Positions 884-21,592 of a DNA stretch of 32,000 nucleotides are shown here, piece by piece. Source of the stretch: Delftia acidovorans NBRC 14950 (GTDB lineage: Bacteria; Pseudomonadota; Gammaproteobacteria; Burkholderiales; Burkholderiaceae_C); NCBI RefSeq assembly GCF_001598795.1, contig NZ_BCZP01000004.1:90001-122000 (forward strand). The letters are read 5' to 3'. The notes below the pieces were generated by a model. It saw only the letters and a list, made by a program, of their open reading frames with translations, was not told where the DNA came from and did no database searches. A program made the position numbers and the translations under genes. Numbering within the stretch: the first letter of the stretch is position 1; each line of letters starts with the position of its first letter.

Positions 884-3800
884 GTGGGGACTCCAGGGAG
901 GCGGGCTGGGCAGGCCCGGTGGAATGCGCAGGCGCATGCCCCGTCAGCGCGCGGCCCGAAAGCCGGCGCAGCGTGACGTAGAACACCGGCGTGAGGAACA
1001 GGCCGAACAGGGTCACGCCCAGCATTCCCGAGAACACGGTCACGCCCGTGGCCGCGCGCACCTCGCTGCCCGCGCCGCCACCGATGAGCAGGGGCACGGC
1101 CCCCGCGATGAAGGCGATCGAGGTCATGACGATGGGCCGCAGCCGCAGGCGGCAGGCCTGCAGCGCGGCATCGACGATGCCCACGCCGCGCAGCTCCAGC
1201 TCGCGTGCGAATTCCACGATCAGGATGGCGTTCTTGCAGGCCAGCCCCATCAGCACCACCAGGCCCACCTGCACGAAGACGTTGTTGTCGCCGCCGGCCA
1301 GCCAGACGCCGAACAGCGCCGCGCAGATGCACACGGGCACGATGAGGATCACGGCCAGCGGCAGCGTCCAGCTCTCGTAGAGCGCGGCCAGCACCAGGAA
1401 GACCAGCATCACGGCAATGGCGAAGACCACTGCCGCGGCGTTGCTCTGCTCCACCTGCTGGTAGCTCAGGTCGGTCCAGGCCAGCTCGATGCCGCGCGGC
1501 AGCGTGCGCTGCGCGATCTCCTGGAGCTTGGCCAGCACCTCGCCCGAGGACAGCACGCGCGGGTCGGAGTCGCCGATCAGATCGGCCGCCGGAAAGCCGT
1601 TGTAGCGCAGCACCGGGTCGGGGCCGAAGCTGGGCACCACGGTGACCATGGAGCCTATGGGCACCATCTCGCCGCGCGCATTGCGCGTGCGCAGACTGGC
1701 GATGTCCTCCACGGTCTGGCGGTGGTCCGCGTCGGCCTGCAGCATCACGCGCCAGACGCGGCCGAAGGCGTTGAAGTCGTTGACGTAGACCGATCCCAGG
1801 TAGGCCTGCAGCGTCTGGAACAGGTCGGTCAGCGCCACGCCCTGGGCCTTGGCCTTGGTGCGGTCCACCTTGACTTCCAGCTGCGGGATGTTGGACTGGT
1901 AGCTGCTGACCGGGTAGGTCATGCCCGGCGTTTTGGCGATCTCGGCCTGGAAGGCCTGCAGCGCCTGCTGCAGCGCCGCGTAGCCCAGGCCCGCGCGGTC
2001 CTGCAGGAACAGCGAGTAGCCCGAGCCGTTGCCCAGGCCCTGGATGGGCGGGGGCATCAGCGCATAGGCGAAGCCGCCCTCGATCTGCGAGAACTTCGCG
2101 CCCAGCTCGGCATTGATGGCCTCGGCGCTGCGCGTGCGCTCGCCGAAGGGCTTGAGCATGATGTAGGCGCTGGTCAGGTTGGGCGTGGTCGTGGACTGCA
2201 GCGCGTTGAAGCCCGCGAAGGCGGCGACCATGTCCACGCCTTCCACGCTTTTGGCGGCATCGACCATCTGGCGCGTGACCGCATCCGTGCGGTTCAGCGA
2301 AGCCCCCTCGGGCAGCTTGGCGCCGCCGAACAGGTACAGCTTGTCCTGCAGCGGAATGAAGCCGCCCGGCACGGCCTGGAACAGCACGGCCGTGCCCGCC
2401 AGCAGCGCCGCATAGACCGCGAACACCAGGCCCCGGCGGCGCAGCGAATGCCCCACCGAGTTCTGGTAGCCGTGGGCGCTGCGGTCGAAGAAGCGGTTGA
2501 AGGGCCGGAAGAGCCAGCCCAGGCTGCGGTCCAGCCCGCGCGCCAGCGGATCGCGCGGCGCGCCGCGCGGCTGCAGCAGCTTGGCCGCCAGCGCGGGCGA
2601 CAGCGTCAGCGAGTTGATGGCCGAGATCACCGTGGAGATGGCAATCGTCACGGCGAACTGCTTGTAGAACTGACCCGTCACGCCGCTGAGAAAGGCCATG
2701 GGCACGAAGACCGCGCACAGCACCAGGGCGATGGCGATGATGGGGCCCGAGACCTCCTTCATCGCCAGGTGGGCCGCCTCCAGGGGCGTGTGCCCTTCCT
2801 CGATGTAGCGCTCCACGTTCTCCACCACCACGATGGCGTCGTCCACCACGATGCCGATGGCCAGCACCAGGCCGAACAGGGTCAGCGTGTTGATGGAGTA
2901 GCCCAGCAGGTACAGCCCCGCGAAGGTGCCGACGATGGACACGGGCACGGCCAGCAGCGGAATGATGGAGGCGCGCCAGGTCTGCAGGAAGACGATGACC
3001 ACCAGCACCACGAGGATGACGGCCTCGATCAGCGTGCTCTGCACCGCCTTGATGGAGTCGCGCACGAAGACCGTGGGGTCCCAGACCGTCTCGAAGGCCA
3101 CGCCCTCGGGCAGGTCCTGGGACAGCTTGTCCATGGCCGCGTAGACCTGCTCGGCCACGCCCAGCGCATTGGCGCCGGGCGACAGGAAGATGCCGACGGC
3201 CGCCATGTTCTTCTTGTCGCTCCACGAGCGCAGCGTGTAGTCGCTGGCGCCCAGCTCGATGCGCGCCACGTCGGCCAGGCGCACGACCTGGCCGTCCGCA
3301 CCGCCCTTGAGCACGATGCTGCCGAATTCCTCGGGCGTCTTCAGCCGCCCGCGCACGTTGATGGACAGCAGCTTGTCCGCGCTCTGCGGACTGGGCTGCG
3401 CGCCCAACTGCCCGGCCGAGACCTGGATGTTCTGCTCGCGGATGGCGGCAATCACCTCGGGCGCCGTGAGCTGGCGCGCGGCCACCTTGTCCGGGTCCAG
3501 CCACACGCGCATGGCGTAGTCGCCCGCGCCGTAGATGCCCACGTCGCCAATGCCCGGAATGCGTGCCAGCACGTCCTTGATCTTGAGCGTGACGTAGTTG
3601 CGCAGGTACAGCGCGTCATGCTGGCCGTCCTGGGACACCAGGCCCACGTACATCAGAGGCGTGGACGACTGCTTTTGCGTGGTCACGCCGAACTGGCGCA
3701 CCTCCTCGGGCAGACGGCTCTGGGCCTGGCTGACGCGGTTTTGCACGCGCACGGCGGCCGTGTCGGGATCGACGTCGGGGCGGAAGGTGGAGACCACCTG

Positions 3801-4070
3801 CAGGCTGCCGTCGGACGCCGCGACCGACTTCATGTACATCAGGCCTTCGACGCCGTTGATGGCCTCCTCCAGCGGCACGGCCACCGACTCGGCGACCTCC
3901 TTGGGATTGGCGCCCGGATAGGTGGCGCGCACCACCACGCTGGGCGGCACGACCTCGGGATACTCGCCCACGGGCAGCTGCGGAATCGCGACCAGCCCCA
4001 CGGCGAACAGGATGATGGAGAGCACGACCGCGAAGATCGGCCGGTCTATGAAGAATTTGGAGAAGTCCAT
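876..4070 (-). CDS. RND multidrug efflux permease (HAE1 family, MexF-like), 1064 aa
   Basis: Part of track ORF 876..4304(-). The internal ATG at 4070 gives MDFSKFFIDRPIFAVVLSIILFAVGLVAIPQLPVGEYPEVVPPSVVVRATYPGANPKEV..., the canonical AcrB/MexF N-terminus. The length of about 1060 aa is typical. GGGAAG lies upstream of the ATG. Confidence 0.95.
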   Translation of the reverse strand: MDFSKFFIDRPIFAVVLSIILFAVGLVAIPQLPVGEYPEVVPPSVVVRATYPGANPKEVAESVAVPLEEAINGVEGLMYMKSVAASDGSLQVVSTFRPDVDPDTAAVRVQNRVSQAQSRLPEEVRQFGVTTQKQSSTPLMYVGLVSQDGQHDALYLRNYVTLKIKDVLARIPGIGDVGIYGAGDYAMRVWLDPDKVAARQLTAPEVIAAIREQNIQVSAGQLGAQPSPQSADKLLSINVRGRLKTPEEFGSIVLKGGADGQVVRLADVARIELGASDYTLRSWSDKKNMAAVGIFLSPGANALGVAEQVYAAMDKLSQDLPEGVAFETVWDPTVFVRDSIKAVQSTLIEAVILVVLVVIVFLQTWRASIIPLLAVPVSIVGTFAGLYLLGYSINTLTLFGLVLAIGIVVDDAIVVVENVERYIEEGHTPLEAAHLAMKEVSGPIIAIALVLCAVFVPMAFLSGVTGQFYKQFAVTIAISTVISAINSLTLSPALAAKLLQPRGAPRDPLARGLDRSLGWLFRPFNRFFDRSAHGYQNSVGHSLRRRGLVFAVYAALLAGTAVLFQAVPGGFIPLQDKLYLFGGAKLPEGASLNRTDAVTRQMVDAAKSVEGVDMVAAFAGFNALQSTTTPNLTSAYIMLKPFGERTRSAEAINAELGAKFSQIEGGFAYALMPPPIQGLGNGSGYSLFLQDRAGLGYAALQQALQAFQAEIAKTPGMTYPVSSYQSNIPQLEVKVDRTKAKAQGVALTDLFQTLQAYLGSVYVNDFNAFGRVWRVMLQADADHRQTVEDIASLRTRNARGEMVPIGSMVTVVPSFGPDPVLRYNGFPAADLIGDSDPRVLSSGEVLAKLQEIAQRTLPRGIELAWTDLSYQQVEQSNAAAVVFAIAVMLVFLVLAALYESWTLPLAVILIVPVCICAALFGVWLAGGDNNVFVQVGLVVLMGLACKNAILIVEFARELELRGVGIVDAALQACRLRLRPIVMTSIAFIAGAVPLLIGGGAGSEVRAATGVTVFSGMLGVTLFGLFLTPVFYVTLRRLSGRALTGHAPAHSTGPAQPASLESPHA

Positions 4071-4083
4071 GGTGCTTCCCGGT

Positions 4084-5298
4084 TCACTGCGCGGCCACGG
4101 CCGGCGCCTTGGCCACCGCCGCCTGCCCGTCGCCGGGAGCAGGCTTGGGGCTGATCGGCATGCCGGGGTAGTAGATGCGCTGCAGGCCGCCGACCACGAG
4201 GCGGTCGCCCGCCGCCAGCCCCTTGTCCACCACGCGCCGGCCATCGACCATGCGGCCCAGCTCCAGGTCGCGGCGCTCGGCCTTGTTGCCCTCGCCCACC
4301 ACATAGACGTACTTGCGGTCCTGGTCGGTGAGCACGGCCTTGTCGTCGATCAGCAGCGTCTGCCGCTCGCCGCCCACGCCCTGCGCGTCTTGCAGTTGCA
4401 CGCGCGCGAACAGGCCCGGCGTCAGCAAGCGGTCGGGATTGGGCAGGCGGGCGCGCATGCGCACCGTGCCCGTGCCCGCGTTGAGCTGGTTGTCGGTGAA
4501 GTCCAGGCTGCCCGCATGCGGAAAGCCTTCGTCGCCAGCCAGCCCCACACGCACGGGCCGCTGCACGCCGGGCCGCCCCTTGGTGTCCTTGGCGGCCTGC
4601 TGCTGCCGCAGGAAGCTGTGCTCGTCCGCATCGAAGTAGACATACACCGGGTCCTGCGAAACCACGGTGGTCAGCACGCTCTGGTCGGCCTGGGCCAGGT
4701 TGCCCACGGTGAGCAGGGCGCGGCCCGCGCGGCCGGAGACCGGCGCGCGTACCTCGGTGAAATCCAGGTTGAGCCGGGCTGCCGCCAGCGCGGCCTCGGC
4801 GGCGCGCACCTGGGCGGCGCTCTGGGCCAGGGCACCGGCGCGCGTATCGGCTTCCTCGCGCGAGACGGCATGCTCTGCCACCAGCTGGCGGGCGCGCTGG
4901 TCCTGGGTGCGGGCCAGCGCGGCGCCTGCGCGCGTGCGCTCCAGCTCGGCCTCGGCGCTGGCCAGGGCGGCGCGGTAGGGCCTCTGGTCGATCACGAACA
5001 GCAACTGGCCCTTCCTGACCTCCTGCCCCTCGCTGAAGGCAATGCGCTCGATATAGCCCGACACGCGCGGGCGCAGTTGGACCGACTCCACGGCATCGAT
5101 GCGGCCGTTGAACTCGTCCCAGACACGCACGCTGGTCGGCACGACCTCGCTCACCAGCACCTCGGGCGCAGGCGGCGGGCCGTCGCTGGCATGGGCATCG
5201 CCCACGGCCTGCGGGCGGCAGCCGGCAAGCAGGGCCAGCGCCGCCAGGGCGCCTCCGAACAGGGCACGCCGCAACGGCGGCGGTGGAAGAACGGGCAT
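4084..5298 (-). CDS. RND efflux periplasmic adaptor (membrane fusion protein, MexE-like), 404 aa
   Basis: Part of track ORF 4084..5421(-). The ATG at 5298 is preceded by AAGGAG. The N-terminus MPVLPPPPLRRALFGGALAALALLAGC is a lipoprotein signal. HlyD/MFP hallmarks are present (RPRVSGYIERIAFSEGQEVRKGQLLFVID, coiled-coil hairpin, LDFTEVRAPVSGR). The gene lies 13 nt upstream of the RND gene. Confidence 0.9.
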   Translation of the reverse strand: MPVLPPPPLRRALFGGALAALALLAGCRPQAVGDAHASDGPPPAPEVLVSEVVPTSVRVWDEFNGRIDAVESVQLRPRVSGYIERIAFSEGQEVRKGQLLFVIDQRPYRAALASAEAELERTRAGAALARTQDQRARQLVAEHAVSREEADTRAGALAQSAAQVRAAEAALAAARLNLDFTEVRAPVSGRAGRALLTVGNLAQADQSVLTTVVSQDPVYVYFDADEHSFLRQQQAAKDTKGRPGVQRPVRVGLAGDEGFPHAGSLDFTDNQLNAGTGTVRMRARLPNPDRLLTPGLFARVQLQDAQGVGGERQTLLIDDKAVLTDQDRKYVYVVGEGNKAERRDLELGRMVDGRRVVDKGLAAGDRLVVGGLQRIYYPGMPISPKPAPGDGQAAVAKAPAVAAQ

Positions 5299-5419
5299 GG
5301 ATCGACTCTCCTTGAGGGGGATGGGCAAGGCCCTGCTGCCGGGGCTGCGGCGGGGCCGGAAAAAGGGGCGGGACCGCAGGCTCTGGAGGCCTTCCAGGCG
5401 GTTGCTCACAATGGGTTGC

Positions 5420-5450
5420 ATTCTTCAAGTTCAAGTGAACTTGAAGTCAT
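5420..5450 (-). promoter_or_regulatory. SoxR-box (MerR-type) promoter reading toward the RND efflux operon
   Basis: The minus strand reads ATGACT-(19 nt)-AAGAAT. The spacer contains the palindrome TTCAAGT-nn-ACTTGAA (5430-5445), which is close to the E. coli soxS operator CCTCAAGTTAACTTGAGG. The box starts at position 5 of the -35 hexamer and ends 3 nt before the -10, the same geometry as the soxS promoter. A 19-bp spacer is the MerR-family hallmark. Confidence 0.6.
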
Positions 5451-5717
5451 GATCCGCGCGCAAAGACACCACGAAAATTGAGGACGGTTTGCCGGGGATA
5501 TCGCTGGCCGGATCGGACAAGCGCAGCGGCAATTGACCAGGAACGACCTGAGAAGACCTGGACAGGCGCGCACAGACGGACACACGCGCGTTGCCGCACC
5601 TGCAGGACGCCACCACTACACTGCAAGGCCATCTGACCCAGGGTGGCGGCCAGGTACCGCCAGAAACCGCCGACGAACGCCGACACCCTCCATGGAAAAG
5701 CACTGGATGCCTGCCGC

Positions 5718-8700
5718 ATGAATCTGCTTGCTCACGCCACACTGTCCCGGCCACAGGGACGCAACGAACGCATCAGCACCGTGAGGGTGCTGGCCCTGGA
5801 GATGCCGGGCGGCGACACCACGGCCACCGCAGCGCGCCATGTCGTGACCTTGCAGGTCACGCAATTGAAGGCCGGCGTCGTCGCGCAGGTCGATGACAGC
5901 ACGCTCACCCCCTTGCCCCAGGCGCTGGAGCCTGCACGCCAGCGCGCGCTGGCCTACCTGCGCCAGCGCCTGGGCGCGGGCGATGTGCTGCAGTCCCATG
6001 AGGGCTTTGCGGAGCTGGATGCTGAAGCAGGCCCGGCGCCCTCCCCCGGCCAGGCCCCGGGACAGGCCACGGTGCCGCCAGGCCTGTCGGAGTCGGCCTT
6101 GCAGGCCGGCGCCATTTCCGCCCTGTGCAAACGCCTGGACGGCAGCGCCTGGCGGCTGATGCCCTCGGGCCAGCAGGCCCGGCTGGTGTGGCGGCTGGCC
6201 GAGTATGCGGACCCCGCGCGCGGCGGCGCCGCCCAGCGCCTGCTGCATGCCCAGGTTCCACGCCTGGTGGCGCTGCTGGGCACGGGGGACGATCTGCTCG
6301 ACTACTGCCTGGCCTACCTCATCGGGCGCCTGGGCGATGGCGGCGCGGCGGTGGCCCTGCAGGCGCTCTCGCAACGCGGCACCAGCGAGGCCACGCGCGA
6401 TCTGGCGCACCAGGCCTGGCTGGCCCTGCTGGAGCCGCAGGAACGCCAGGCGGCGCTGCAGGAGTACCAGGCGCAGTGGGCCGGGATCCCCCCGCAGAAA
6501 AACGGCCCGAAAGAGGACGGACCGCAGGCCGAACAGGCCTTCTTCCAGGCACTTGGGCCACAGGCGCTGCTGGCGGCCGATGCGCTGGGCGCGCACGACG
6601 GCGCCATCCACCAGCAGCTGCTGGCCTGGATGGAGCGCATCCCCTTCACGCGCGCCTGGTGGCCGGCCCTGCGGCGCATCCACAAGCGTGCCGAGTGGCG
6701 GCGCGACCACGCCCTGCTGGCCGTGCTGCATGCGCGCTTCGATGGCCCGCGCGACGAGGGTGCCGTCTTCAGCCGCGACACCTCGCTGTACCTGCGCCTG
6801 CGCGGCTGGCGCCAGCTGCGGCGCATGGCCTCGGCCGACCACAGCGAAAGCGCCGCCCATGCCGCAGCCCTGCTCCAGGCCATGGACCGCTGCTGCGCGG
6901 GCCTGCCTGCCTCGCGCTCCGGCCGCCTGCCCGAATCGCGCTGGCTGCTCGCCGCCCGGCTGCTGCTGCCGCGCTGGCCGCAACTGCATGCCTCGGCCCG
7001 CGCCCACACCTGGTACACCGACGAGCCGCTGGACCTGCAGCAGCTGCCCGCGCAGCGCGTGGAAGGACTTTCGGCCATGTGGGACGCCCACCCCGGGCAA
7101 CTGCTGCAACTGGTGGGCCGTTCGCAGTCCACGCTGCTGCTGTGGTCGCTCACGCGCGCCCTGCAGGACCAGAAGGCCTTTCTGGACGGCCTGGATGCAG
7201 CGGCCACCGCGCCGCTGCTGCACAAAACCTATGCACCGGCGGCTGCGCTGGGCCTTCAGATCGCGCAGCAGCGCATGGTCTCGCTGACCGACGATGCGGC
7301 GCGCCGGCCCTGGCTGCTGGCGCTTGCGCAATGCGGCGACGGGCCTGCCGCCAGCTACCTGGGCGCCTGGCTGTCGCGTGACCGCGCAGGCGCCGCGCGC
7401 GATGCCGAACTGGTGGCCGCCCTGCTGCTGTCACCGGCCGCCAGCTCGCGCACCCAGGGCCTGGCCCTGCTGTTTTATGCCGATGGTGCAGCCGTGGCCC
7501 TGGCCTTGCTGGCGGCGCTGCCCACGCTGGACGCCGAAAGCCCCGCGCTGGCCGATATCCGCGATGCGGTGCAGGCGCTGTTCGATGGCAACGGCCCGCT
7601 GGCTGCGCAGGCCGCCAGCGTCCCGGCCCCACCGCTGCACCACCTGCTGGCGCATTCGGTGACGGCGCTGGTGGAGATGGCCACCGCCTGGCTGCTGGCA
7701 CACCCGCAGGGCCTGCGGACCCTGCCGCCGGCGGCGTTGCGCGGGCTGCTGGAATCCGAGGAACCTGCGCGCATGGCCTGCGGCATACGGCTCATGGGCA
7801 GCCTGGCCGATGACCTGCTGTGCGAGCAGGCCGCCATGCTGGCCGAATTCGCCGTATCGCCGCATGCCGCCTTGCGCGCAGCGGCAGCGCCCCTGGTCGA
7901 GCGCCTGGCCGGCACCCCCGTCTACAACACGCGCTGCAACGCCCAGATCGCCGAGCGCCTGCACGAAGTGCTGTTCCGCGCGGAAAAGGCCGAAGGCGTC
8001 CACGACGCGGCGCTGCGGCTGCTCACCGGCCCGCTGGCCGCCGTGGCCCCGGCCCGCGATGCCTCGGGCATCTGGCGCGCCCTGCAGGCTCAGGCCAAGG
8101 GCGCACAGCGCTACGGCGTCTGGGGCCTGAAGGCGCTGGACCTGCAGGTCTACACGCTGCGCCAGTGGTCCACGCTGGCCCGGCATGCCGATGCCGACGT
8201 GCGCGCCTTGAGCCGCCAGAGCATCGATGCGCAGCTCACCCCCATGGACCGGACCCTGCCCGAGCAGGCCGAACAGCTGCTGCCGCTGGCTGACGCCCTG
8301 TTTGCCGACACGCAGCAGTACGCACGCGAGATGTTCGGCCAGCGGCTGCCGGACGGCGCCCTGTCGCCGCAGCTGCTGCTCGGCTGGGTCGATCACGCCC
8401 AGCCCTGGGTGCAGGCCCTGGGCCGCCAGCGGCTCGCGCAGCACATGAGCGCGCCCGAGGCCAGCCTCTTCCTCACGCGCCTGGCCCAGCACCCCGCCAC
8501 CAGCGTGCAGCTGTTCGTCACGCAATGGCTGCTCGCCCTGCCCGACGAGCCCGCGCCGCAGCGCGCGGCGCGCCTGCAGGAGCTGCAGCCCTACTTCCTG
8601 GCCGTGCTCAGCCAGGTGCACCGCGCGCGCGCCAGCAAGACACGCGTGCTGCATTTCCTGCGCAGCCAGGTGCAGGCGCCCGAGACCGCCGCCGTGGTGG

Positions 8701-8861
8701 CAGCCATCTTTGCGCGGCAGGTGGTCAGCGCCAGCCATGCCGACCAGCCCGACTATGTGGCCGGGCTGCGCGACATCGTGCAGCGCCATCCCCAGCTGGC
8801 GCAAAGCTTCATGCAGCCCCTGGCGGCGGAGCGGCGCGGCCAGGCCCCGTCTTCAACCTGA
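5718..8861 (+). CDS. Large Ala/Leu-rich alpha-helical-repeat protein (ARM/HEAT-like by composition); putative retron accessory protein
   Basis: Track ORF 5643..8861(+) is a single uninterrupted 3.2-kb frame with high third-position GC. The antisense ORFs are Arg/Gly-rich junk. The start is uncertain: GTG 5643, ATG 5718 (chosen) or ATG 5802. I recognise no catalytic motif. The repeat-like helical character is inferred from composition only. The gene sits 31 nt upstream of, and co-directional with, the SWIM gene. Confidence 0.6.
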   Translation: MNLLAHATLSRPQGRNERISTVRVLALEMPGGDTTATAARHVVTLQVTQLKAGVVAQVDDSTLTPLPQALEPARQRALAYLRQRLGAGDVLQSHEGFAELDAEAGPAPSPGQAPGQATVPPGLSESALQAGAISALCKRLDGSAWRLMPSGQQARLVWRLAEYADPARGGAAQRLLHAQVPRLVALLGTGDDLLDYCLAYLIGRLGDGGAAVALQALSQRGTSEATRDLAHQAWLALLEPQERQAALQEYQAQWAGIPPQKNGPKEDGPQAEQAFFQALGPQALLAADALGAHDGAIHQQLLAWMERIPFTRAWWPALRRIHKRAEWRRDHALLAVLHARFDGPRDEGAVFSRDTSLYLRLRGWRQLRRMASADHSESAAHAAALLQAMDRCCAGLPASRSGRLPESRWLLAARLLLPRWPQLHASARAHTWYTDEPLDLQQLPAQRVEGLSAMWDAHPGQLLQLVGRSQSTLLLWSLTRALQDQKAFLDGLDAAATAPLLHKTYAPAAALGLQIAQQRMVSLTDDAARRPWLLALAQCGDGPAASYLGAWLSRDRAGAARDAELVAALLLSPAASSRTQGLALLFYADGAAVALALLAALPTLDAESPALADIRDAVQALFDGNGPLAAQAASVPAPPLHHLLAHSVTALVEMATAWLLAHPQGLRTLPPAALRGLLESEEPARMACGIRLMGSLADDLLCEQAAMLAEFAVSPHAALRAAAAPLVERLAGTPVYNTRCNAQIAERLHEVLFRAEKAEGVHDAALRLLTGPLAAVAPARDASGIWRALQAQAKGAQRYGVWGLKALDLQVYTLRQWSTLARHADADVRALSRQSIDAQLTPMDRTLPEQAEQLLPLADALFADTQQYAREMFGQRLPDGALSPQLLLGWVDHAQPWVQALGRQRLAQHMSAPEASLFLTRLAQHPATSVQLFVTQWLLALPDEPAPQRAARLQELQPYFLAVLSQVHRARASKTRVLHFLRSQVQAPETAAVVAAIFARQVVSASHADQPDYVAGLRDIVQRHPQLAQSFMQPLAAERRGQAPSST

Positions 8862-8892
8862 GCGCCGCAACAAGGCACGGAGTCGATCGGAC

Positions 8893-10620
8893 ATGGAATT
8901 TCGCTATCAGTACTACGGCAGCACGCAGGTCAACGACACGGCGGCCGAGCAGGCCTTCTCCTTCGCGCCCGACCTGCTGCGCCCACCCACACGCTTCGAC
9001 GGCCTGCTCCGGCGCGACGGCCCGGCCTACCTGCAGGTGCGCGAAGGGCTGTCCGCGCTGCACAGCGTGGTGGTCAGCGACCTGCGCACGCGCGGCCGCG
9101 ACAAGACGGCCTACCGCGAATGGCTGCAGGAGCACGAAGCGCAAATGCTCGCCACCTTCATGGCCGACACCGGCGGCGCCCAGGCGCGCGCCAAGGAAAT
9201 CAGCGCCGAACTCAAGAACCTGCGCGAGACCCGCAACCAAGTGCTCTCCCCCTTCTACAAGGCCCAGCGCAAGTACTTCGACTGGCTGTTCGTGGCCAAC
9301 CGCGATGCGTGGTATGTGCTCGACCCCGTGATCACCGTGCACCCGGACCGGCTGCTGTTCGAGGCCTTCAGCCAGGACGAATCGAGCTACTGCGCGGTCA
9401 GCATCCGGCACGAGGCCTTCGAGCATGCGGGCGAGCGCATCTGCGGCACCACCAACATCGATTACTCGGCCAGCCTCTACGAAGAATTCCAGAAGATCCG
9501 CAACTACCGGGACACGCGGCTGACGCTGGACCCGGCCGGCTTTGCCGTGCAGGTGGGCGGTGACCCCGCGCTGCGCGAGGAAAAGATCGACCTGCCCGAC
9601 AGCTGGCTGCGCGGCTTCGTGCAGGTCTCCAGCGCCATGGCCCTGCCCGCCACCGTGCTGGAGCTGCACCCCATGGACCTGTTCAACATCTGCGCGCGGC
9701 TGCGTGCCCGGCGCGAGCGCCACGGCCCGCGCGCGCTGCGCTTCGAGCTGGCGCCGGGACAGCCGCCCGCCGTGGTGTTCGAGCCCTGGGAGGAGCTCCT
9801 GGCCACCCGGCGCTCGCACGTCGTCAGCGATGCCATGGGCACGGGCGGCGGCACCATCCGCCTGTGGGGGCGCCGCCGCCTGCTCACGCTGGAGCGGCTG
9901 ATCTCCCAGGCCACGCGCGTGCGCGTGCACCTGCTGGGCAGCGGCATGCCCAGCTTCTGGGTGATCGAGCTGGGACTGGTCACGGTCACGCTGGGCCTGT
10001 CTGGCTGGAGCGCCAACGACTGGGCCGCCAGCGCACGCTTTCACCTGATGGCGCCGCAGGCCGAGGTCACGCCTGCCCAGGTCGAGGCCGTGGGCCGGCA
10101 GCTGCAGTCGTGCTGGCAGGCCGGCGCGCAGGATCTGGCCCAGGCCACGGGCCTGGCCCCGGCCCAGGTGCACACGGCCATGACACGCTGGATGCAGGCC
10201 GGGCGTGCGGTCTACGACCTGGACGCCGGGCGCTACGCCTGGCGCGAACTGCTGCGCGAGCCGCTGACGGCGCAGCAATTGCAGCCCGCCAACCCCGAGG
10301 AGGACAAGGCGCTGGCCCTGGTGCGCGGCAAGGCCATTGCCCCGCCGCGCATCGACCGCAAGGACGGGTTCAGCCGCATCACCGGCCAGATCCCGCGCGC
10401 CGACGGCAAGCGCCTGTTCGACACCCAGCTCGAACTCGATGCCGACGAGCGCCTGACCGATGCGCGCTGCAGCTGCAACCACTACCAGCAGTACCGGCTG
10501 CGCCAGGGGCCCTGCGAGCACATGATTGCGCTGCGCCTGGTGGCGCAGCCCCAGCTCGATGCCGCCCGCCAGCCGACCGGCCCGCAGATGAAGGCCGCAG
10601 GACAAGGAGAAATCGCGTGA
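8893..10620 (+). CDS. SWIM zinc-finger protein (WH-SWIM-like), 575 aa; putative retron accessory protein
   Basis: Part of track ORF 8710..10620(+). The ATG at 8893 (MEFRYQYYGSTQV...) has ACGGAG about 12 nt upstream. The C-terminus ...DARCSCNHYQQYRLRQGPCEHMIALRL matches the SWIM signature CxCxnCxH. Confidence 0.85.
   Translation: MEFRYQYYGSTQVNDTAAEQAFSFAPDLLRPPTRFDGLLRRDGPAYLQVREGLSALHSVVVSDLRTRGRDKTAYREWLQEHEAQMLATFMADTGGAQARAKEISAELKNLRETRNQVLSPFYKAQRKYFDWLFVANRDAWYVLDPVITVHPDRLLFEAFSQDESSYCAVSIRHEAFEHAGERICGTTNIDYSASLYEEFQKIRNYRDTRLTLDPAGFAVQVGGDPALREEKIDLPDSWLRGFVQVSSAMALPATVLELHPMDLFNICARLRARRERHGPRALRFELAPGQPPAVVFEPWEELLATRRSHVVSDAMGTGGGTIRLWGRRRLLTLERLISQATRVRVHLLGSGMPSFWVIELGLVTVTLGLSGWSANDWAASARFHLMAPQAEVTPAQVEAVGRQLQSCWQAGAQDLAQATGLAPAQVHTAMTRWMQAGRAVYDLDAGRYAWRELLREPLTAQQLQPANPEEDKALALVRGKAIAPPRIDRKDGFSRITGQIPRADGKRLFDTQLELDADERLTDARCSCNHYQQYRLRQGPCEHMIALRLVAQPQLDAARQPTGPQMKAAGQGEIA
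10468..10521 (+). other. SWIM zinc-finger motif C526-x-C528-x12-C541-x-H543 within the 8893-10620 CDS
   Basis: Codons TGC 10468, TGC 10474, TGC 10513 and CAC 10519 are in frame with the ATG at 8893. Confidence 0.8.
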
Positions 10621-10649
10621 CCCGCCTCAATTGCTCTACACTGCCACGC

Positions 10650-10876
10650 GGAGCGACGCGCAGGCTCTTGCAATCCGGGTGGTGTTTCGCCACCCTTGTG
10701 AACTGCCGTTTCATGCACCACGGGCGCCGTTTTCACTGTGCCACCCCAGCGACGGTATGCGTTTTCCTGAGTGGCTTGCCACAAGCGAAACACGCATACC
10801 GTCGCGGGGTGGCGTCGAGCGAACAGCTCCCGTCCCGTGAGCCCTGCGGGCTCTTCGACGAGAAGCGCGTCGCTCC
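10650..10876 (+). ncRNA. Putative retron msr-msd non-coding RNA (template/primer for msDNA)
   Basis: GGAGCGACGCGC (10650-10661) is the exact reverse complement of GCGCGTCGCTCC (10865-10876), like retron a1/a2 repeats. Between them are a hairpin at 10677-10695, a long imperfect hairpin at 10741-10812 (7+14+3 bp with two bulges) and a nested hairpin at 10813-10860. The element ends 51 nt before the RT ATG, and no credible ORF lies in the 307-nt spacer. The exact ends and the branching G are not determinable from sequence. Confidence 0.6.
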
Positions 10877-10927
10877 ATTTCTTTGCCCGCCGCACAGCGG
10901 CCGGGCCCGCCTTGCCGGGGTGGCCGC

Positions 10928-12904
10928 ATGAGCCAGCCGCAACCCACACGCGCCGAGATCTACGAGCGCATCAAGGCCTCCAGCAAACAGGAAGTCATCC
11001 TCGACGAGATGCAGCGCCTGGGCTTCTGGCCCAAGGGCGAGGGACAGCCGCAGCTGGCCGCCGCCCACATCCAGCGCGAGGGCGAGCTGCAGCGCGAGCT
11101 GGCCGAGCTGCGCCAGCAGATCGCCGTGCGCCAGAACCCCGAGCGCGCATTGCGCCAGATGCGCAAGGAGCGCATGCAAAAGGCGCTGGCCCAGCGCGAG
11201 GAAACCAAACGCCGCCAGGCCCAGGAGCGCCACGACAAGGCGCTGGCCTGGCATGCGAAGCGGGCCACGCACGTGGGCTATCTGGGCCCCGGCGTCTCCG
11301 CTGCCCTCCAGGGGCCGCAGGCCGGTGAGGCACCGCCTGCTGCCGGGGAACGCCGGCAGGCCGACCCGCAAAGGCTGGCCCGGCATGGCCTGCCGGAACT
11401 TGCCGATGCAGCGCAGCTGGCCGATGCCATGGGCATCACCGTGGCCGAGCTGCGTTTCCTGGGCTTTCACCGCGAGGTGGCCCGCACCCACCACTACCAC
11501 TCGTTCACCCTGCCAAAGAAGACCGGCGGCGAGCGGCTGATCTCCGCGCCCATGCCGCGCCTCAAGCGCGCGCAGTACTGGGTGCTGGACAACATCCTCG
11601 CCAAGGTGCCCGCGCACGATGCCGCGCACGGCTTCCTGGCCGGCCGCTCCATCGTGAGCAATGCCGCGCCGCATGCGGGCCACGACGTGGTCATCAACCT
11701 GGATGTGAAGGACTTCTTTCCCAGCATTGCCTTCGGCCGCATCAAGGGCGTGTTCTGTCATCTGGGCTATGGCGAGGCCATGGCCACCCTCCTGGCCCTG
11801 CTGTGCAGCGAAAACCGCGCCCAGGCCTGGCAGGTGGATGGCGAGAAGCTCTTCGTCGGCGGCAAGGCGCGCGAGCGCGTGCTGCCCCAGGGCGCGCCCA
11901 CCAGCCCCATGCTCACCAACCTGCTGTGCCGCCGCCTGGACCGCCGCCTGCTGGGCCTGGCCAGGCAGCTGGGCTTTGTGTACACGCGCTATGCGGACGA
12001 CCTGACCTTCTCCGCCTCGGGCGAGGCCGCGCGCGACAACGTGGGCCGGCTGCTGGGCCGCGTGCGCTGGATACTGCGCGACGAAGGCTTCACGCCCCAC
12101 CCCGACAAGGAGCGCGTGATGCGCAAGGGCCGCCGCCAGGAGGTCACGGGGCTGGTGGTGAACGCGGACAAGCCCGGCGTATCGCGCGAGACGCGCAGGC
12201 GCCTGCGCGCCGCCCTGCACCGCGCCACGCAGGCCAGCGCCGGCAAGCCGGCGCACTGGCAGGGGCAGGCAGCCCAGCCCTCGCAATTGCTGGGACTGGC
12301 GCAGTTCGTGTACCAGGTCGACCCCGTGCAGGGCGGTCCGCTGCTGGGCCAGGCCCGCCAGCTCACGCGCAGCCCCATCGACCGCGCCAACGATGCCCTG
12401 CTGCAGGCCAGCCGGCAGGACCGCGCGGCGGCGCGTGCGCAGCCGCCCGCAAGCGCACAGTTCCGGCGTCTGGCCGCCAGCGGGCAGGCGCCTGCGCTGG
12501 CCAGCGGCAAGACGTGGTGGCAGCCGGCCGAGCCGGCGGCACCCGTGATCGAGAAGACCGACCAGCAGCGGCGCGAACAGCGGCTGCAAGAGCGCGAGGC
12601 CGCACGCGCCCAGGCAGCTGCGGCCGCACGGCCGGCCGTGGACACGCCGCAGCAGCAGCCCGCACAGGCGCCGAGCCCCGACGCACAGGCACCCGGCCCA
12701 TCGCCGATGCCCGGCCTGCTGACCTACTGGGCGCAGATCGTGATCTGCTTCTTGCTGGGCACGGTGTTCCAGGCGCGCCTGATCACGCTGATCGGCATCG
12801 TGCTGGTCCTGCTCCTGCGCTACCGGCGCATACGGCGCTGGGATGTCTTTGCCGGTGCGATGGTGGTGGCCGTGCTGCTAGGCCTGGGGTTGCGGCTGTC
12901 GTGA
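10928..12904 (+). CDS. Retron-type reverse transcriptase with N-terminal coiled-coil-like extension and C-terminal transmembrane segments, 658 aa
   Basis: Part of track ORF 10883..12904(+), starting at ATG 10928 (MSQPQPTRAEIYERI...). RT motifs: HYHSFTLPKKTGGERLISAP, NAAPH (codons 245-249), NLDVKDFFPSI, LPQGAPTSP, YTRYADDLTF (YADD at 11990-12001) and RQEVTGLVVN (VTG at 12143-12151). NAxxH and VTG are regarded as retron-RT signatures. Confidence 0.88.
   Translation: MSQPQPTRAEIYERIKASSKQEVILDEMQRLGFWPKGEGQPQLAAAHIQREGELQRELAELRQQIAVRQNPERALRQMRKERMQKALAQREETKRRQAQERHDKALAWHAKRATHVGYLGPGVSAALQGPQAGEAPPAAGERRQADPQRLARHGLPELADAAQLADAMGITVAELRFLGFHREVARTHHYHSFTLPKKTGGERLISAPMPRLKRAQYWVLDNILAKVPAHDAAHGFLAGRSIVSNAAPHAGHDVVINLDVKDFFPSIAFGRIKGVFCHLGYGEAMATLLALLCSENRAQAWQVDGEKLFVGGKARERVLPQGAPTSPMLTNLLCRRLDRRLLGLARQLGFVYTRYADDLTFSASGEAARDNVGRLLGRVRWILRDEGFTPHPDKERVMRKGRRQEVTGLVVNADKPGVSRETRRRLRAALHRATQASAGKPAHWQGQAAQPSQLLGLAQFVYQVDPVQGGPLLGQARQLTRSPIDRANDALLQASRQDRAAARAQPPASAQFRRLAASGQAPALASGKTWWQPAEPAAPVIEKTDQQRREQRLQEREAARAQAAAAARPAVDTPQQQPAQAPSPDAQAPGPSPMPGLLTYWAQIVICFLLGTVFQARLITLIGIVLVLLLRYRRIRRWDVFAGAMVVAVLLGLGLRLS
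12725..12901 (+). other. Predicted hydrophobic (2-3 TM) C-terminal tail of the RT
   Basis: The C-terminal sequence is YWAQIVICFLLGTVFQARLITLIGIVLVLLLRYRRIRRWDVFAGAMVVAVLLGLGLRLS. It has three hydrophobic stretches separated by Arg-rich loops, and follows a Pro/Ala/Gln-rich low-complexity linker. Confidence 0.6.
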
Positions 12905-12909
12905 TGTTC

Positions 12910-12944
12910 GCGGGGCCGCAGGCCTCAGAGGCCTGCGGCCCCGC
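12910..12944. terminator. Bidirectional GC-rich hairpin between the convergent RT and AraC genes
   Basis: GCGGGGCCGCAGGCC (12910-12924), a TCAGA loop, then GGCCTGCGGCCCCGC (12930-12944) form a perfect 15-bp stem. It starts 6 nt after the RT stop and overlaps the last codons and stop of the AraC gene. There is no clear U-tract. Confidence 0.55.
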
Positions 12945-13758
12945 CCGCCACGGGTGCACTGCGCAGCGCCAGGAAGCGGCGCGGCGAGGTGCCCACCGCC
13001 TTGCGGAACATGGTCACGAAGGCGGGTGCGCTCTCGTAGCCCAGGGCATCTGCCACGGTCTGTATGCGCAGCCCCTCGGACAGCTTTTGCAGTGCGGTGA
13101 GCACATGCAGCTGGCGGCGCCACTGGTTGACCGTAAGCCCGGTCTCGGCCAGGAACAGCCGCGTCATGCTGCGCTCGCTCATGCCGATGCGCTGGGCCCA
13201 GTCGGCCAGCCGTGCCTGCAGCTGCGGCTGCTCGCACAGGGCGTTGGTCATGCGGCGCAGGCGCCGGTCGTGCGGCAGGGGCAGGTGCAGTCCTTCGGGC
13301 TGCGCCGCCTGGATCTCGTCGAGCAGCACCTGCATGAGCCGGCCATCGCCGCTGTCGGGCTCGTAGTCCTGCGGCAGACCCTGCACGCGGTCCAGCAGCG
13401 CACTGAGAAAGGGCGAGACGGCCAGCGCATGGCAGGGTCCGGGCACGGGGCGCACGGCCCCTGCCTCGACAAAGACCACGTAGCCGCTGGCCGCACCGCT
13501 GCAGCTGACCCGGTGCAGCGTGCCGCCCGGAATCCAGGCGGCGCTGCGCGGCGGCACCACGCAGACGCCCGCATCGGTCTCCAGCGTGATCAGCCCCGCA
13601 TGGGTGACCATGAGCTGGCTCTTGCGGTGGGCATGGAAGTTCATCCCCCAGTCGCCGGGGCCCGACCGCATGGGCAGGACGATCACGGGACGGTCCACAT
13701 GGTCGGGGTCCCACCTCTCGGGCAGGACTTTGAGCAGGGCTGAATCCACGGCATTCAT
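12925..13758 (-). CDS. AraC-family transcriptional regulator (N-terminal cupin-like sensor, C-terminal HTH), 277 aa
   Basis: Track ORF 12925..13758(-). The C-terminal region ...LADWAQRIGMSERSMTRLFLAETGLTVNQWRRQLHVLTALQKLSEGLRIQTVADALGYESAPAFVTMFRKAVGTSPRRF is a canonical AraC double HTH. Confidence 0.9.
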   Translation of the reverse strand: MNAVDSALLKVLPERWDPDHVDRPVIVLPMRSGPGDWGMNFHAHRKSQLMVTHAGLITLETDAGVCVVPPRSAAWIPGGTLHRVSCSGAASGYVVFVEAGAVRPVPGPCHALAVSPFLSALLDRVQGLPQDYEPDSGDGRLMQVLLDEIQAAQPEGLHLPLPHDRRLRRMTNALCEQPQLQARLADWAQRIGMSERSMTRLFLAETGLTVNQWRRQLHVLTALQKLSEGLRIQTVADALGYESAPAFVTMFRKAVGTSPRRFLALRSAPVAGGAAGL

Positions 13759-13789
13759 GGTGTTTCTCTCAGTTCATGTCAATCGGTCA

Positions 13790-14173
13790 TCAATCGGACC
13801 CGAGCAGCTCCCGTGCACGCTGCTGCGCCTCCTCGGGGGAGGCCACCAGCAGCATGGGATAGCCCCAGGCCTTGCCGAACATCTGTGCGAAGGCCTCGGC
13901 CTCGGCGCGCTTTTGCGCATCGGGCTCGGCGTGGACCAGGGCGCGCACCAGGCTTTTGAGCTCGGGGCGGCGGGCCTTCATCCACAGCACGACCTGCTTG
14001 CGCTCCTCAGGTGAGCGCTCCTCCTGGGCCATGTCGCCGTCGCTGAAGAAGACAAAGGCCTGGCCGCGGGCCAGCAGGGCCGAGAAGTCCTCCAGCAAGC
14101 GGTCCACGGGCACGGCCTTGTCGCGCTCGTAGCCCATGCGGACCAGGGGAAAGCTGCTGCTGTCGATGTACAT
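13790..14173 (-). CDS. Hypothetical protein, 127 aa (no family recognised)
   Basis: Part of track ORF 13790..14458(-). The ATG at 14173 (MYIDSSSFPLVRMGYERDK...) has a strong GGAGG 6 nt upstream. Third-position GC is high. The gene lies 31 nt upstream of the AraC gene on the same strand and downstream of the second SoxR-type promoter. Confidence 0.6.
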   Translation of the reverse strand: MYIDSSSFPLVRMGYERDKAVPVDRLLEDFSALLARGQAFVFFSDGDMAQEERSPEERKQVVLWMKARRPELKSLVRALVHAEPDAQKRAEAEAFAQMFGKAWGYPMLLVASPEEAQQRARELLGSD

Positions 14174-14346
14174 GGAAACCTCCGGCCGATGCCATTCAAT
14201 ACAAATGAGACCCATTACTGTATGAATGAACGGCAGCTGCGTCATTGCAGCACTCAGCCAAAGAATTTCGCAGTCCGGCCAGGACGCTCGCATGGGCGGT
14301 ACAGACCCGGTTGCCCTGTTCCTGCGCTTTCGCTCAGAATGGCCGC

Positions 14347-14377
14347 ATTCTTCGAGTTCAAGTGAACTTGAAGTCAA
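14347..14377 (-). promoter_or_regulatory. SoxR-box (MerR-type) promoter reading toward orf127-araC, divergent from soxR
   Basis: The minus strand reads TTGACT-(19 nt)-AAGAAT with the palindrome TTCAAGT-nn-ACTTGAA at 14357-14372. It is nearly identical to the module at 5420-5450 and ends 20 nt upstream of the soxR ATG. Confidence 0.6.
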
Positions 14378-14396
14378 GCCACAAAGGAAAGCCACC

Positions 14397-14900
14397 ATGA
14401 AAACCGAGGATGATCCACTGCTCAGCATCGGCGACGTGGCGCAGCGCAGCGGGGTCAAGGCCTCGGCGCTGCGCTTTTACGAGTCGCTGAACCTGATCGA
14501 GTCCGTGCGCAGCGCCAGCGGCCACCGGCGCTACCACCGCTCGTCGCTGCGGCGCATCGCCTTCGTGGTGTTCGCCCAGCGCATCGGCTTCACGCTGGAG
14601 GAGATCGCCGAGCAGCTGGCCAAGCTGCCCAGCCGACATGTCCCCACGGGCGGGGACTGGCAGAAGATGTCGCGGGTCTGGAAGCAGCGGCTGGACGACC
14701 GCATAGGCGAGCTGCAGCGGCTCAGCGAGAGCCTGGACCAGTGCATTGGCTGCGGTTGCCTGTCGCTGCGCCACTGCGTGCTGCACAACCCCGGCGACCT
14801 GTGCGCACAGAACGGCCCGGGGCCGCGCCGCTGGCTGGGCGACCCGCCGCCCGTGGCCATGGGCGGGCCCTGCCCGGGCCACTGCCACGACGAAGGCTGA
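14397..14900 (+). CDS. soxR: Redox-sensitive transcriptional activator SoxR (MerR family, [2Fe-2S])
   Basis: Part of track ORF 14226..14900(+), starting at ATG 14397 after AAAGGAAAG. The MerR HTH is LSIGDVAQRSGVKASALRFYESLNLI. The SoxR cluster motif CIGCGCLSLRHC (CX2CXCX5C) is present. Confidence 0.9.
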   Translation: MKTEDDPLLSIGDVAQRSGVKASALRFYESLNLIESVRSASGHRRYHRSSLRRIAFVVFAQRIGFTLEEIAEQLAKLPSRHVPTGGDWQKMSRVWKQRLDDRIGELQRLSESLDQCIGCGCLSLRHCVLHNPGDLCAQNGPGPRRWLGDPPPVAMGGPCPGHCHDEG

Positions 14901-15722: not shown

Positions 15723-15778
15723 GGTGTGATTCTGGAACGTTTCTGGCGGGTTTTGCGGGCCCATGGCTTGCGGGGGCC

Positions 15779-19706: not shown

Positions 19707-19716
19707 GAGCAGGCTT

Positions 19717-21003: not shown

Positions 21004-21031
21004 GGGTGGATTCCTTGGATGTCGTGGGTCG

Positions 21032-21592
21032 TCAGCAGGCTTGCAGCAGCACCTGCACCAGCCGCGCGTCGTCGGTCTGCGGCGCCAGCTGCTGCGGGTC
21101 GGGCTGCGGCGCGCTCCACCACAGGCCCTGGCCGGGGATGAGCGCAGCGCCATCCGCCTGCCAGTTGCCCTGCAGCACCATGCACAGGCCGGCGTCGGCG
21201 CGGCCGGCGTCGGCAGCGCTGTCCAGCACCTGGACCTGCGCCCGCCACCGGCCGCGCCGCGCCATCACGTTGAAGTCGGTGGAAGTGCCGCCCAGCAGCG
21301 AGCAGCCCAGCGCCACATCGCCGGAGAAGGCAAACGGCTGCCAGCGCGCGTCCAGCACATGGTCGATGCCTTCGCCGCGCAGGTGCACGCCGTCGCCATC
21401 GAGCAGCATGATCTGCCGGTCCACGCCCGCAAAGGCCGAGAACGGGCCGGGCTGGTCAATGGTGGCCACGCTGATGCGCCAGCCGAAAGCCTCCATGCCC
21501 GCCCCGGGCGGCCAGCAGGCGATCTCGCGCGTGCTGCCGCCCCCGTTCTTCCAGGGGCTGGCGGCGATCTGGTTCAGGTCGAAACGCTGCAT
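21032..21592 (-). CDS. hutD: HutD-family protein, 186 aa
   Basis: Part of track ORF 21032..22444(-), starting at ATG 21592 ([25 protein letters not shown]...). The WKNGGGxTxEI motif and the position between hutU and hutI match HutD. Confidence 0.8.

Follow-up and report, generated by a model that had tools for sequence, protein, structure and literature searches.

An apparently intact type XIII retron of Delftia acidovorans with a predicted clamp-like SWIM protein and a putatively membrane-tethered reverse transcriptase

The first multicopy single-stranded DNA (msDNA) to be described, in 1984, was Mx162. Retron-Mxa1 (Mx162) is now listed together with Mxa2 (Mx65), Sau1 (Sa163) and Nex2 (Ne144) among the experimentally validated members of retron type XIII (Table 1 of Mestre et al. 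2020, PMC7736814), which is defined by a clade 10 reverse transcriptase (RT), a protein of cluster 114_1 and, usually, a protein combining a WGR-like domain with HEAT/ARM repeats. The cluster 114_1 protein carries a DEDE motif, a winged helix predicted to be of the DprA type and a SWIM zinc finger of the form CxCx12CxH; owing to the DEDE motif, type XIII has been classed with the predicted-nuclease retrons, and the WGR-like/HEAT protein has been described as a partner that co-evolves with the RT (PMC7736814). Here we analyse a locus of this kind in a 32,000-nucleotide window of the genome of Delftia acidovorans NBRC 14950 (NCBI RefSeq assembly GCF_001598795.1, contig NZ_BCZP01000004.1, positions 90,001 to 122,000, forward strand), where it occupies positions 5718-12904; all coordinates below are those of the window. 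A first-pass annotation of this DNA had taken type XIII to be rare and to lack any experimental description of its msDNA. The four validated members contradict the second statement, and a 2026 metagenome survey, in which type XIII ranks third in abundance and has the broadest phylum range (10.64898/2026.05.14.725207), contradicts the first. Its further remark that neither trigger nor effector has been described agrees with our literature search, in which we found no functional study of type XIII, whether on trigger, effector or phage protection, and no structure. Mechanistic papers have appeared for types I-A, I-C, II-A, III-A3, VI, IX and Retron-Eco8; the retron census and environmental-retron papers searched do not mention type XIII.

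The Delftia locus consists of three co-directional open reading frames (ORFs) on the + strand, at 5718-8861, 8893-10620 and 10928-12904, separated by 31 nt and 307 nt, and these starts, stops and gaps are as first annotated. Type-specific PADLOC models matched all three proteins nearly end to end with E values <1e-170: WGR_XIII matched the first (1.9e-212, covering aa 31-1007 of a translation begun at 5793), SWIM_XIII the second (1.5e-202, aa 1-552) and RT_XIII the third (2.3e-175). RT_XIII was the best model for the RT at 582 bits, against 329 bits for the next, RT_other, a hidden Markov model score that serves as a proxy for membership of RT clade 10. The same assignment is indicated by the type XIII partners that accompany all of the nearest RT cluster representatives and loci. 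Retron RT models dominate the PADLOC match list for this protein, other retron RT families of NCBIfam matched it below threshold, and Pfam recognised RVT_1 and the SWIM finger alone across the three proteins. The general hallmarks of a retron are thus present (RT signatures, an adjacent msr-msd bounded by a1 and a2 arms, a conserved RNA structure), as are those of type XIII: a protein with the DEDE motif, winged helix and SWIM finger, an upstream WGR-like plus HEAT/ARM protein and a matching non-coding RNA (ncRNA). Because three type-specific models match and the spacer aligns and covaries with type XIII spacers, we regard this chromosomal locus, on sequence grounds, as almost certainly a complete and intact, canonical type XIII retron, in line with the type XIII-like label of the first-pass annotation. 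It is apparently a single operon of WGR-like/HEAT scaffold gene, SWIM gene, msr-msd and RT gene. The classification itself brings nothing new, as PADLOC-type tools already label the locus "retron XIII".

The locus resembles those of Mx162, Mx65, Sa163 and Ne144 in its RT_XIII match, the domain set of its SWIM protein, its WGR-like plus HEAT/ARM protein and its gene order. Unlike those retrons, it resides in a betaproteobacterial host, has lost the RYGRRG signature of the WGR domain and has an extra small hairpin in the msd. In addition, its RT is about 170 aa longer than the RTs of distant representatives and myxobacteria (~470-490 aa), by virtue of a linker and a membrane anchor.

For the 307-nt spacer that separates the SWIM gene from the RT gene, the folding energy is -157.8 kcal/mol (z = -6.4), a stability reached by 0 of 100 shuffles. 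Inverted repeat, folding and covariation together delimit within it a putative msr-msd gene at 10650-10876 (+ strand), bounded by the arms a1 (GGAGCGACGCGC, 10650-10661) and a2 (GCGCGTCGCTCC, 10865-10876), which pair perfectly over 12 bp. The gap between the arms is 203 nt, near the modal gap of ~200-207 nt, and a2 ends 51 nt before the RT start codon; across related loci the SWIM-to-RT spacer is most often 260-370 nt long. The 12-bp repeat is more than a chance occurrence: 27 of 60 homologous spacers, but none of 1200 shuffles, contain a perfect inverted repeat of 12 bp or more with 180-220 nt between its arms. When the threshold was set at 9 bp or more, the same architecture was present in 41 of the 60 spacers compared with 3% of shuffles, bearing out the earlier description of a structured spacer with a perfect inverted repeat. 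Furthermore, in these 41 spacers the arm sequences vary between loci while their spacing stays at 180-216 nt, as a1 and a2 behave.

We then aligned 39 such elements, from a1 to a2, drawn from at least six phyla. The Delftia ncRNA aligns over its full length with ncRNAs adjoining type XIII RTs of Myxococcota, Bacteroidota, Cyanobacteria, Acidobacteriota and Proteobacteria, including those of myxobacterial loci (Archangium, Hyalangium, Myxococcaceae), and the msr core is strongly conserved (CCTTGCAAyCCGGGCGGTGtaTCGCCGyCCtTGC...CATGCrTCACTGG). RNAalifold identified compensatory changes at 23 of 26 pairs; covariation reached 0.357, as against <=0.16 in slid controls and a level that none of 500 shuffles attained, and 70% of cells are paired, versus 57% in shuffles. 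Within this structure, the msr hairpin GGGTGGTG-TTT-CGCCACCC (10677-10695), part of the conserved core CTTGCAAyCCGGG..., has 8 pairs with 99.4% of cells paired and compensatory changes at 5 of them. The msd is dominated by a long imperfect hairpin (10719-10834), with an outer stem CACGGG/CCCGTC and an inner stem pairing 10741-10761 with 10793-10812, in which 42 of 47 pairs (helices 5 and 6) show changes on both sides. The small 15-nt GC-rich hairpin GAGCCCTGCGGGCTC (10839-10853), in the 5' part of the msd, is shared only with the Pelomonas locus and is an insertion relative to the 37 other aligned sequences. The branching G is probably G10663, a candidate chosen for its position after a1 and for the presence of a G in the same alignment column in most sequences. 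We regard it as very likely that the locus makes msDNA. An Rfam scan of 5000-14000 at E <=1 returned no retron RNA, and its matches to mir-431, CRISPR-DR29 and CC0196 are chance matches. The CRISPR-DR29 match (12963-12997; 21.5 bits against a gathering score of 39, E 0.82) is a GC hairpin lying just past the RT stop codon, within the 3' end of an AraC-family gene, and is almost certainly fortuitous. In two related loci, public annotation includes a 102-aa ORF within the SWIM-to-RT spacer (14804-15112 in L082 and 12921-13229 in L083), which overlaps the msr-msd position and is probably a spurious call over the ncRNA.

The three genes are also linked across bacteria, as seen from both sides. For the RT side, we collected 80 loci, one genome per species, by scanning with an alignment of the closest 50%-identity RT cluster representatives; these derive from Burkholderiales, Vibrionaceae, Bradyrhizobium, Myxococcota, Bacteroidota, Cyanobacteria, Acidobacteriota, Planctomycetota, Verrucomicrobiota and Bacillota. 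Of these 80 loci, 70 have a homologue of the SWIM protein and 50 one of the HEAT protein, always encoded on the strand of the RT, and the SWIM gene lies upstream of the RT in all but one of the 70. Apart from a few exceptions, L031 and L041 among them, the order is HEAT-SWIM-spacer-RT; of the 10 loci in which SWIM was not matched, 8 offer <2.2 kb of sequence ahead of the RT. For the SWIM side, we took the best 80 SWIM matches in metagenomic data, a sample that leaves more distant SWIM relatives outside. Where the downstream sequence was long enough, an RT was present in 55 of 59 loci, and where the upstream sequence was, a HEAT gene was present in 45 of 46. The type XIII family gave a single fragmentary match among 2.9 million viral contigs. 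These data bear directly on the suggestion that the two upstream genes form an independent operon, usually found without an RT, or that the RT belongs to a non-retron class such as group II introns, the DRT/UG groups or diversity-generating retroelements. NCBIfam models for group II RTs, Drt2 and Drt3a did match the RT, far below their cut-offs; the 582-bit RT_XIII match, the adjacency seen in both directions and the covarying msr-msd between the genes lead us to reject both possibilities, whose probability we consider practically negligible.

The RT gene (10928-12904, + strand) encodes 658 aa from ATG to TGA and was identified by RT_XIII and by Pfam RVT_1. Its motifs NAAPH (11660-11674), NLDVKDFFPSI (11696-11728), YADD (11990-12001) and VTGLVVN (12143-12163), which include the retron signatures NAxxH and VTG and the catalytic YADD, are all present, as the first-pass annotation had read them, and so is the CSCx12CEH finger of the SWIM protein. 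The nearest proteins of solved structure are retron RTs, the best being the Ec86 RT (1.6e-42). The sequence is 100% identical to Delftia acidovorans proteins, and more than 110 of the 120 90%-identity clusters listed are 97-100% identical to it, all of those with an organism name being from Delftia; some of these near-identical proteins have already been called "retron-type reverse transcriptase" by JGI. Ahead of the catalytic core lies a type XIII-specific N-terminal extension (aa 1-150, 10928-11377), which the RT_XIII profile covers from aa 2 onwards and in which the pattern ELYxRI..SKD..L.EM.RLGFWP is conserved among the closest cluster representatives. Behind the core, an Ala/Gln/Pro-rich low-complexity linker (aa 470-595, 12335-12712), recognised by its composition and not conserved in the alignment, leads to a C-terminal membrane anchor (aa 597-630 and 638-658, 12716-12901), in which two hydrophobic segments with Kyte-Doolittle windows >1.6 are separated by RYRRIRR.

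The membrane anchor proposed by the first-pass annotation therefore finds support in these two segments and in related beta- and gammaproteobacterial RTs, and its distribution is confined. Of the 32 closest 50%-identity RT cluster representatives, 17 have one or two C-terminal transmembrane (TM) segments; among the loci, every one of the 11 complete RTs from Burkholderiales, Pleionea and Vibrionaceae has an anchor, as does that of the unclassified metagenome-assembled genome (MAG) L034. In the loci examined, no RT from Myxococcota, Bacteroidota, Cyanobacteria, Acidobacteriota or Planctomycetota carries one, nor did we find a consistent downstream TM gene in loci whose RT has no anchor. As the SWIM and HEAT genes persist in these phyla in the absence of an anchor, the latter is an add-on of one subclade. 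It is not mentioned in the main text of Mestre et al. (PMC7736814) or in the 2026 survey (10.64898/2026.05.14.725207). One could imagine that the C-terminal helices disrupt the membrane when triggered, giving an abortive-infection response comparable to that of type IV retrons (Ec48), which according to Mestre et al. have a two-TM partner protein (PMC7736814). The two hydrophobic segments with a positively charged loop would suit such a role, as would the retention of the anchor across Burkholderiales, Pleionea and Vibrionaceae despite a linker that is not conserved. However, five other phyla retain the SWIM and HEAT genes with neither a TM segment nor a consistent downstream TM ORF, and one or two helices on a long flexible linker are suited to simple tethering. 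We therefore regard both this mode of action and, more narrowly, the RT tail as effector as quite improbable, and membrane tethering as the most economical reading of the anchor. Type IV also differs in other respects: while both types combine a retron RT with a two-helix membrane element, the helices of Ec48 are encoded by a separate downstream gene, whereas those of Delftia are fused to the RT and limited to one subclade of the type, and the type IV RT belongs to clade 3, that of type XIII to clade 10 (PMC7736814).

Two further observations concern membrane segments in related RTs. In an alphaproteobacterial MAG (L040, ~9172-9800), the RT ORF stops 64 aa past YADD, and the overlapping ORF next to it, read in a different frame, has a TM segment at its end. 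The split looks like a frameshift or assembly error in a TM-anchored RT; if it is an error, the anchor would reach the Alphaproteobacteria. Three more distant RT cluster representatives (P0176, P0178 and P0185) have several hydrophobic segments at the N-terminus, not the C-terminus, a pattern suggesting repeated origins of membrane attachment among retron RTs.

The SWIM protein gene (8893-10620, + strand; 575 aa, ATG to TGA) is of the cluster 114_1 type. Its product is 35-63% identical to orthologues from different phyla, and invariant positions among these orthologues are D144, E157, D162, D190, E229, the motif GTTNID, W325-G-R-x-R329 and the four zinc ligands. The acidic residues form the DEDE motif D-x7-D-x4-E-x32-D-x38-E (aa 144-229); D144, E157, D162, D190 and E229 are invariant in 34 orthologues spanning many phyla, and the ligands of the CSCx12CEH finger (C526, C528, C541 and H543; 10468-10521; Pfam SWIM 2.5e-5) are invariant both in those 34 and in a set of 80. 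An AlphaFold2 (AF2) model built on 80 homologues has a mean predicted local distance difference test score (pLDDT) of 70.7 and a predicted TM-score of 0.71, with weak regions at aa 1-30, 62-71, 190-235 and the C-terminus. From the N-terminus onwards, the model runs through a small sheet, a long hairpin of helices, a beta/alpha region at aa ~145-370, a winged helix and the SWIM module. The winged-helix-like domain (aa 394-450, 10072-10242) is modelled as three helices plus a beta hairpin, and weak PDB sequence matches link this region to the winged helix-turn-helix (wHTH) proteins TFE and AdcR (E 0.04-0.16).

When the model was compared with the PDB using Foldseek, the top 50 matches were all PCNA structures (E 6.6e-8 to 1.4e-6, probability 1.0), with TM-scores on the target of 0.48-0.59 for 49 of the 50 over ~260 aligned columns. 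In BFVD, most of the top matches with a usable name were viral PCNA, beta clamp or herpesvirus processivity factors. The part concerned, which from its secondary-structure pattern we place at aa ~144-370 (9322-10002), is predicted to form a two-domain, PCNA-like DNA-clamp fold and includes the DEDE acidic residues together with the motifs GTTNIDYS and WGRRRL. Its second half, aa 254-369, which is modelled with more confidence (pLDDT 77-90), reads as two beta-alpha-beta-beta-beta motifs, the signature of clamp domains. Four helices of the region carry invariant or near-invariant basic residues (K201/R203, R240, R271/R272 and R327-R329 with R335) and in this resemble the DNA-facing helices of clamps. 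The likeness to PCNA, beta clamp and UL42/UL44-type proteins is thus one of predicted fold, over the central ~230-260 residues, and of basic helices. Unlike those clamps, the SWIM protein also has an N-terminal sheet, a helical hairpin, a winged helix, a SWIM finger and an invariant acidic cluster, and we know of no such cluster in sliding clamps. Sequence comparison with hhalign gave no significant match of the SWIM profile to E. coli DnaN (E 0.37) or to a human PCNA sequence (E 0.058), and a PDB sequence search with the profile identified no solved relatives, only marginal wHTH and coiled-coil matches. We found no paper tying retrons to a PCNA-like protein. On balance, we lean towards a clamp-like DNA-binding fold for the SWIM protein, as its model suggests.

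This prediction competes with the assignment of Mestre et al., in which the SWIM protein would be a nuclease derived from a transposase (Mutator/IS256-like DDE) that cuts DNA once freed from the RT-msDNA complex (PMC7736814). The DEDE motif and the invariance of its acidic residues in the 34 orthologues speak for that assignment, as does its publication. The AF2 model, however, places the motif region in the clamp-like fold (model confidence being poor at aa 190-235), with a strand and helix order (four strands, helix, strand) that departs from that of RNase H-like proteins; neither the top 50 PDB matches nor the named top 50 BFVD matches include a transposase, integrase or RNase H-like protein, and the PDB sequence search found no match to any transposase. 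To the extent that the model can be trusted, a Mutator-type RNase H-like fold is unsupported, and we consider a transposase-derived nuclease unlikely. The first-pass annotation had seen no recognisable enzymatic effector in the locus. That view holds in so far as the models of both upstream proteins, an analysis it had itself suggested, show a HEAT scaffold and a clamp-like fold and no enzyme or transposase fold, but it has to be qualified by the published DEDE motif, which is present in the SWIM protein.

The largest gene (5718-8861, + strand; 1047 aa, ATG to TGA) is of the cluster 216_1 type and encodes the WGR-like plus HEAT/ARM protein. We place its start at ATG 5718, which orthologue alignments match to the initiator Met, and not at the upstream GTG 5643. 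The protein matched no family in Pfam or NCBIfam. An AF2 model built on 35 Burkholderiales homologues (mean pLDDT 87.8) shows a WGR-like domain, a disordered linker and an alpha solenoid that extends to aa 1031. In the model, the N-terminal domain (aa 1-101, 5718-6020) has a sheet of four strands followed by a helix and another strand (pLDDT ~85-93). In the family alignment, most orthologues have the canonical WGR signature (SDKVYEVDL...VVNFRYGRRG...KGY); the motif is degenerate in Delftia, RYGRRG being absent here as in other Burkholderiales (including L001, L003, L005 and L007), and the WGR-like fold is still predicted. The solenoid (aa 127-1031, 6096-8810) is a HEAT/ARM array that by DSSP is wholly helical save for two 3-residue strands at aa 423-434, and Foldseek against the PDB retrieved HEAT scaffolds only: SF3B1, CAND1, PP2A-A, karyopherins and the HEAT subunits of condensin. 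As modelled, the protein is a WGR-like domain followed by a HEAT scaffold, with no space for a hidden enzyme domain. In three loci from Planctomycetota and Polyangia/Minicystis (L064, L068 and L074), a WGR domain (...VYQVSLDRxRLKVRWG...) is instead found at the C-terminus of the SWIM protein, the fused genes ending at about 2598, 7827 and 7857, respectively, and no HEAT/ARM homologue was detected upstream. From its C-terminal position on the SWIM protein in these loci, the WGR module appears to move between the two accessory proteins.

Based on these models and on general retron biology, we suggest the following working. The RT would prime from the 2'-OH of the G just 3' of a1, for which 10663 is the candidate, and copy leftwards through the msd, beginning at 10864. 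The product would be a branched msDNA of ~145-160 nt, dominated, as in Mx162, by a long DNA hairpin. The SWIM protein, with its clamp-like double domain and basic helices, winged helix and SWIM finger, may hold this msDNA, and the HEAT solenoid, with a WGR-like module that binds nucleic-acid ends, may scaffold the RT; that the two are binding partners of the msDNA and RT is probable. In the beta- and gammaproteobacterial members examined, the C-terminal helices of the RT would tether the assembly to the inner membrane. By analogy with characterised retrons, the RT-msDNA complex would hold a partner in check, and alteration of the msDNA during phage infection would lift that restraint. As effector, the best candidate would then be the SWIM protein, whose invariant acidic site would act on nucleic acid, although a toxic or effector activity of that site strikes us as rather doubtful. 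Taken as a whole, an intact type XIII retron of the Mx162/Mx65/Sa163/Ne144 family that works as proposed is, in our judgement, a likely explanation of the locus.

On the - strand upstream of the retron lies an efflux pair of the resistance-nodulation-division (RND) class at 876-5421, composed of an AcrB-family gene (876-4304) and an HlyD-type membrane-fusion protein gene (4084-5421). As the pair and the retron are divergent, the 296-nt region 5422-5717 must hold both promoters; a scan for sigma-70 promoters returned zero sites, and terminator-like sites were no commoner than in shuffles. Downstream, an AraC-family regulator gene (12925-13758, - strand) converges with the RT gene and is followed by a MerR regulator gene (14226-14900, + strand) and then by amidohydrolase and aminotransferase genes of hut type, the downstream region spanning 12925-21153. 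In Delftia tsuruhatensis (L085), where the RT is 87% identical, the same neighbours flank the retron, and the downstream genes lie in a cluster of histidine-utilisation type (FGase, HutF-like, HutD, urocanase). In Comamonas composti, by comparison, the orthologous retron (locus L082) sits directly downstream of an RtcR-RtcB-RtcA operon, and the Diaphorobacter copy is flanked by glyoxalase and hemX. The RNA-repair cluster of L082 (1961-9736) comprises RtcR, a Band_7 protein, RtcB, a metallo-beta-lactamase with a Pfam match to the anti-Pycsar protein Apyc1, RlaP and RtcA; the position of the retron beside it could be coincidence or could reflect a stress or defence neighbourhood. Because neighbours differ among the three Comamonadaceae genera examined, the retron has moved: it is vertically stable within Delftia and has been relocated over longer times, in agreement with the remark of Mestre et al. 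that type XIII follows 16S more closely than the other types.

Several points weigh against the working proposed above. The clamp call comes from a single AF2 model of moderate confidence, and it is weakened by pLDDT values <50 at aa 190-195 and 214-233, since these residues lie inside the acidic motif region. Searches of Pfam and NCBIfam, PDB sequences and folds found no recognised toxin or nuclease domain. Being absent from most of the type XIII family, the anchor cannot be the general effector of the family. The making of msDNA, its branch point and any toxicity or phage defence are predictions. Finally, the surroundings are those of RND efflux, AraC, MerR and hut-type genes and not of a defence island or mobile element; given this housekeeping setting, the synteny within the genus and the near-absence of the family from viral contigs, a domesticated role outside defence fits these facts as well as defence does. 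Under such a role, the msDNA would serve the cell itself, in DNA/RNA transactions or stress regulation, there would be no toxin, and the SWIM and HEAT proteins would be msDNA-handling or processivity factors instead of effectors. A clamp-like fold, as modelled for the SWIM protein, is typical of polymerase tethering factors, and Mestre et al., who observed that type XIII alone correlates with host 16S, suggested possible domestication (PMC7736814). Against this stand the relocation of the element among the three genera, the patchy occurrence of type XIII across many phyla and the five invariant acidic residues with GTTNID, which look like an active or metal-binding site. Moreover, in the literature searched, all retron types characterised so far are defence systems, and PADLOC counts type XIII among its defence and candidate-defence models. 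We thus hold domestication to be a somewhat unlikely, though serious, alternative to the retron acting through a partner released on phage infection.

Compared with the structurally solved retrons Ec86, Ec67, Ec78, Ec83, Eco8 and Kva2, the Delftia locus has a homologous RT core and the same combination of ncRNA, RT and accessory protein(s). Unlike this group, it encodes no recognisable effector of the NDT, Toprim, PtuAB, OLD-like ATPase-nuclease or HEPN kind, its predicted msDNA is much longer, and its RT has extensions at both the N- and C-termini. WGR, large helical and SWIM proteins are also found clustered in the E. coli yehF/yehH/yehI-yehLMPQ genes (WGR, DUF4132, MoxR, VWA, SWIM), which, unlike a retron, come without RT or ncRNA. 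As a relative of the accessory pair, the yeh cluster was rejected: in a comparison with single-sequence templates, which is a weak test, only the SWIM finger aligned, with YehQ (E 0.018), and YehI gave nothing significant.

The mechanism of type XIII carries weight since the family is abundant, spans many phyla and is historically the first retron family. The analysis of the Delftia locus sharpens the picture at three points, namely the predicted clamp fold of the SWIM protein, the WGR-like plus HEAT architecture of the giant protein and the RT anchor of a proteobacterial subclade. As a tentative generalisation, to which we give well below even credence, the SWIM protein of type XIII may be a clamp-fold DNA binder that, with the WGR/HEAT scaffold, grips a long msDNA hairpin, with the RT tethered to the membrane in beta- and gammaproteobacteria, and with neither a transposase-like nuclease nor a classical toxin. 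If this is true, type XIII would employ a mechanism unlike that of the toxin-antitoxin retrons characterised so far; its complex might, for example, confer processivity, present the msDNA or serve as a sensor to which host factors are recruited. The betaproteobacterial copy described here may move into E. coli or Pseudomonas more easily than the myxobacterial ones.

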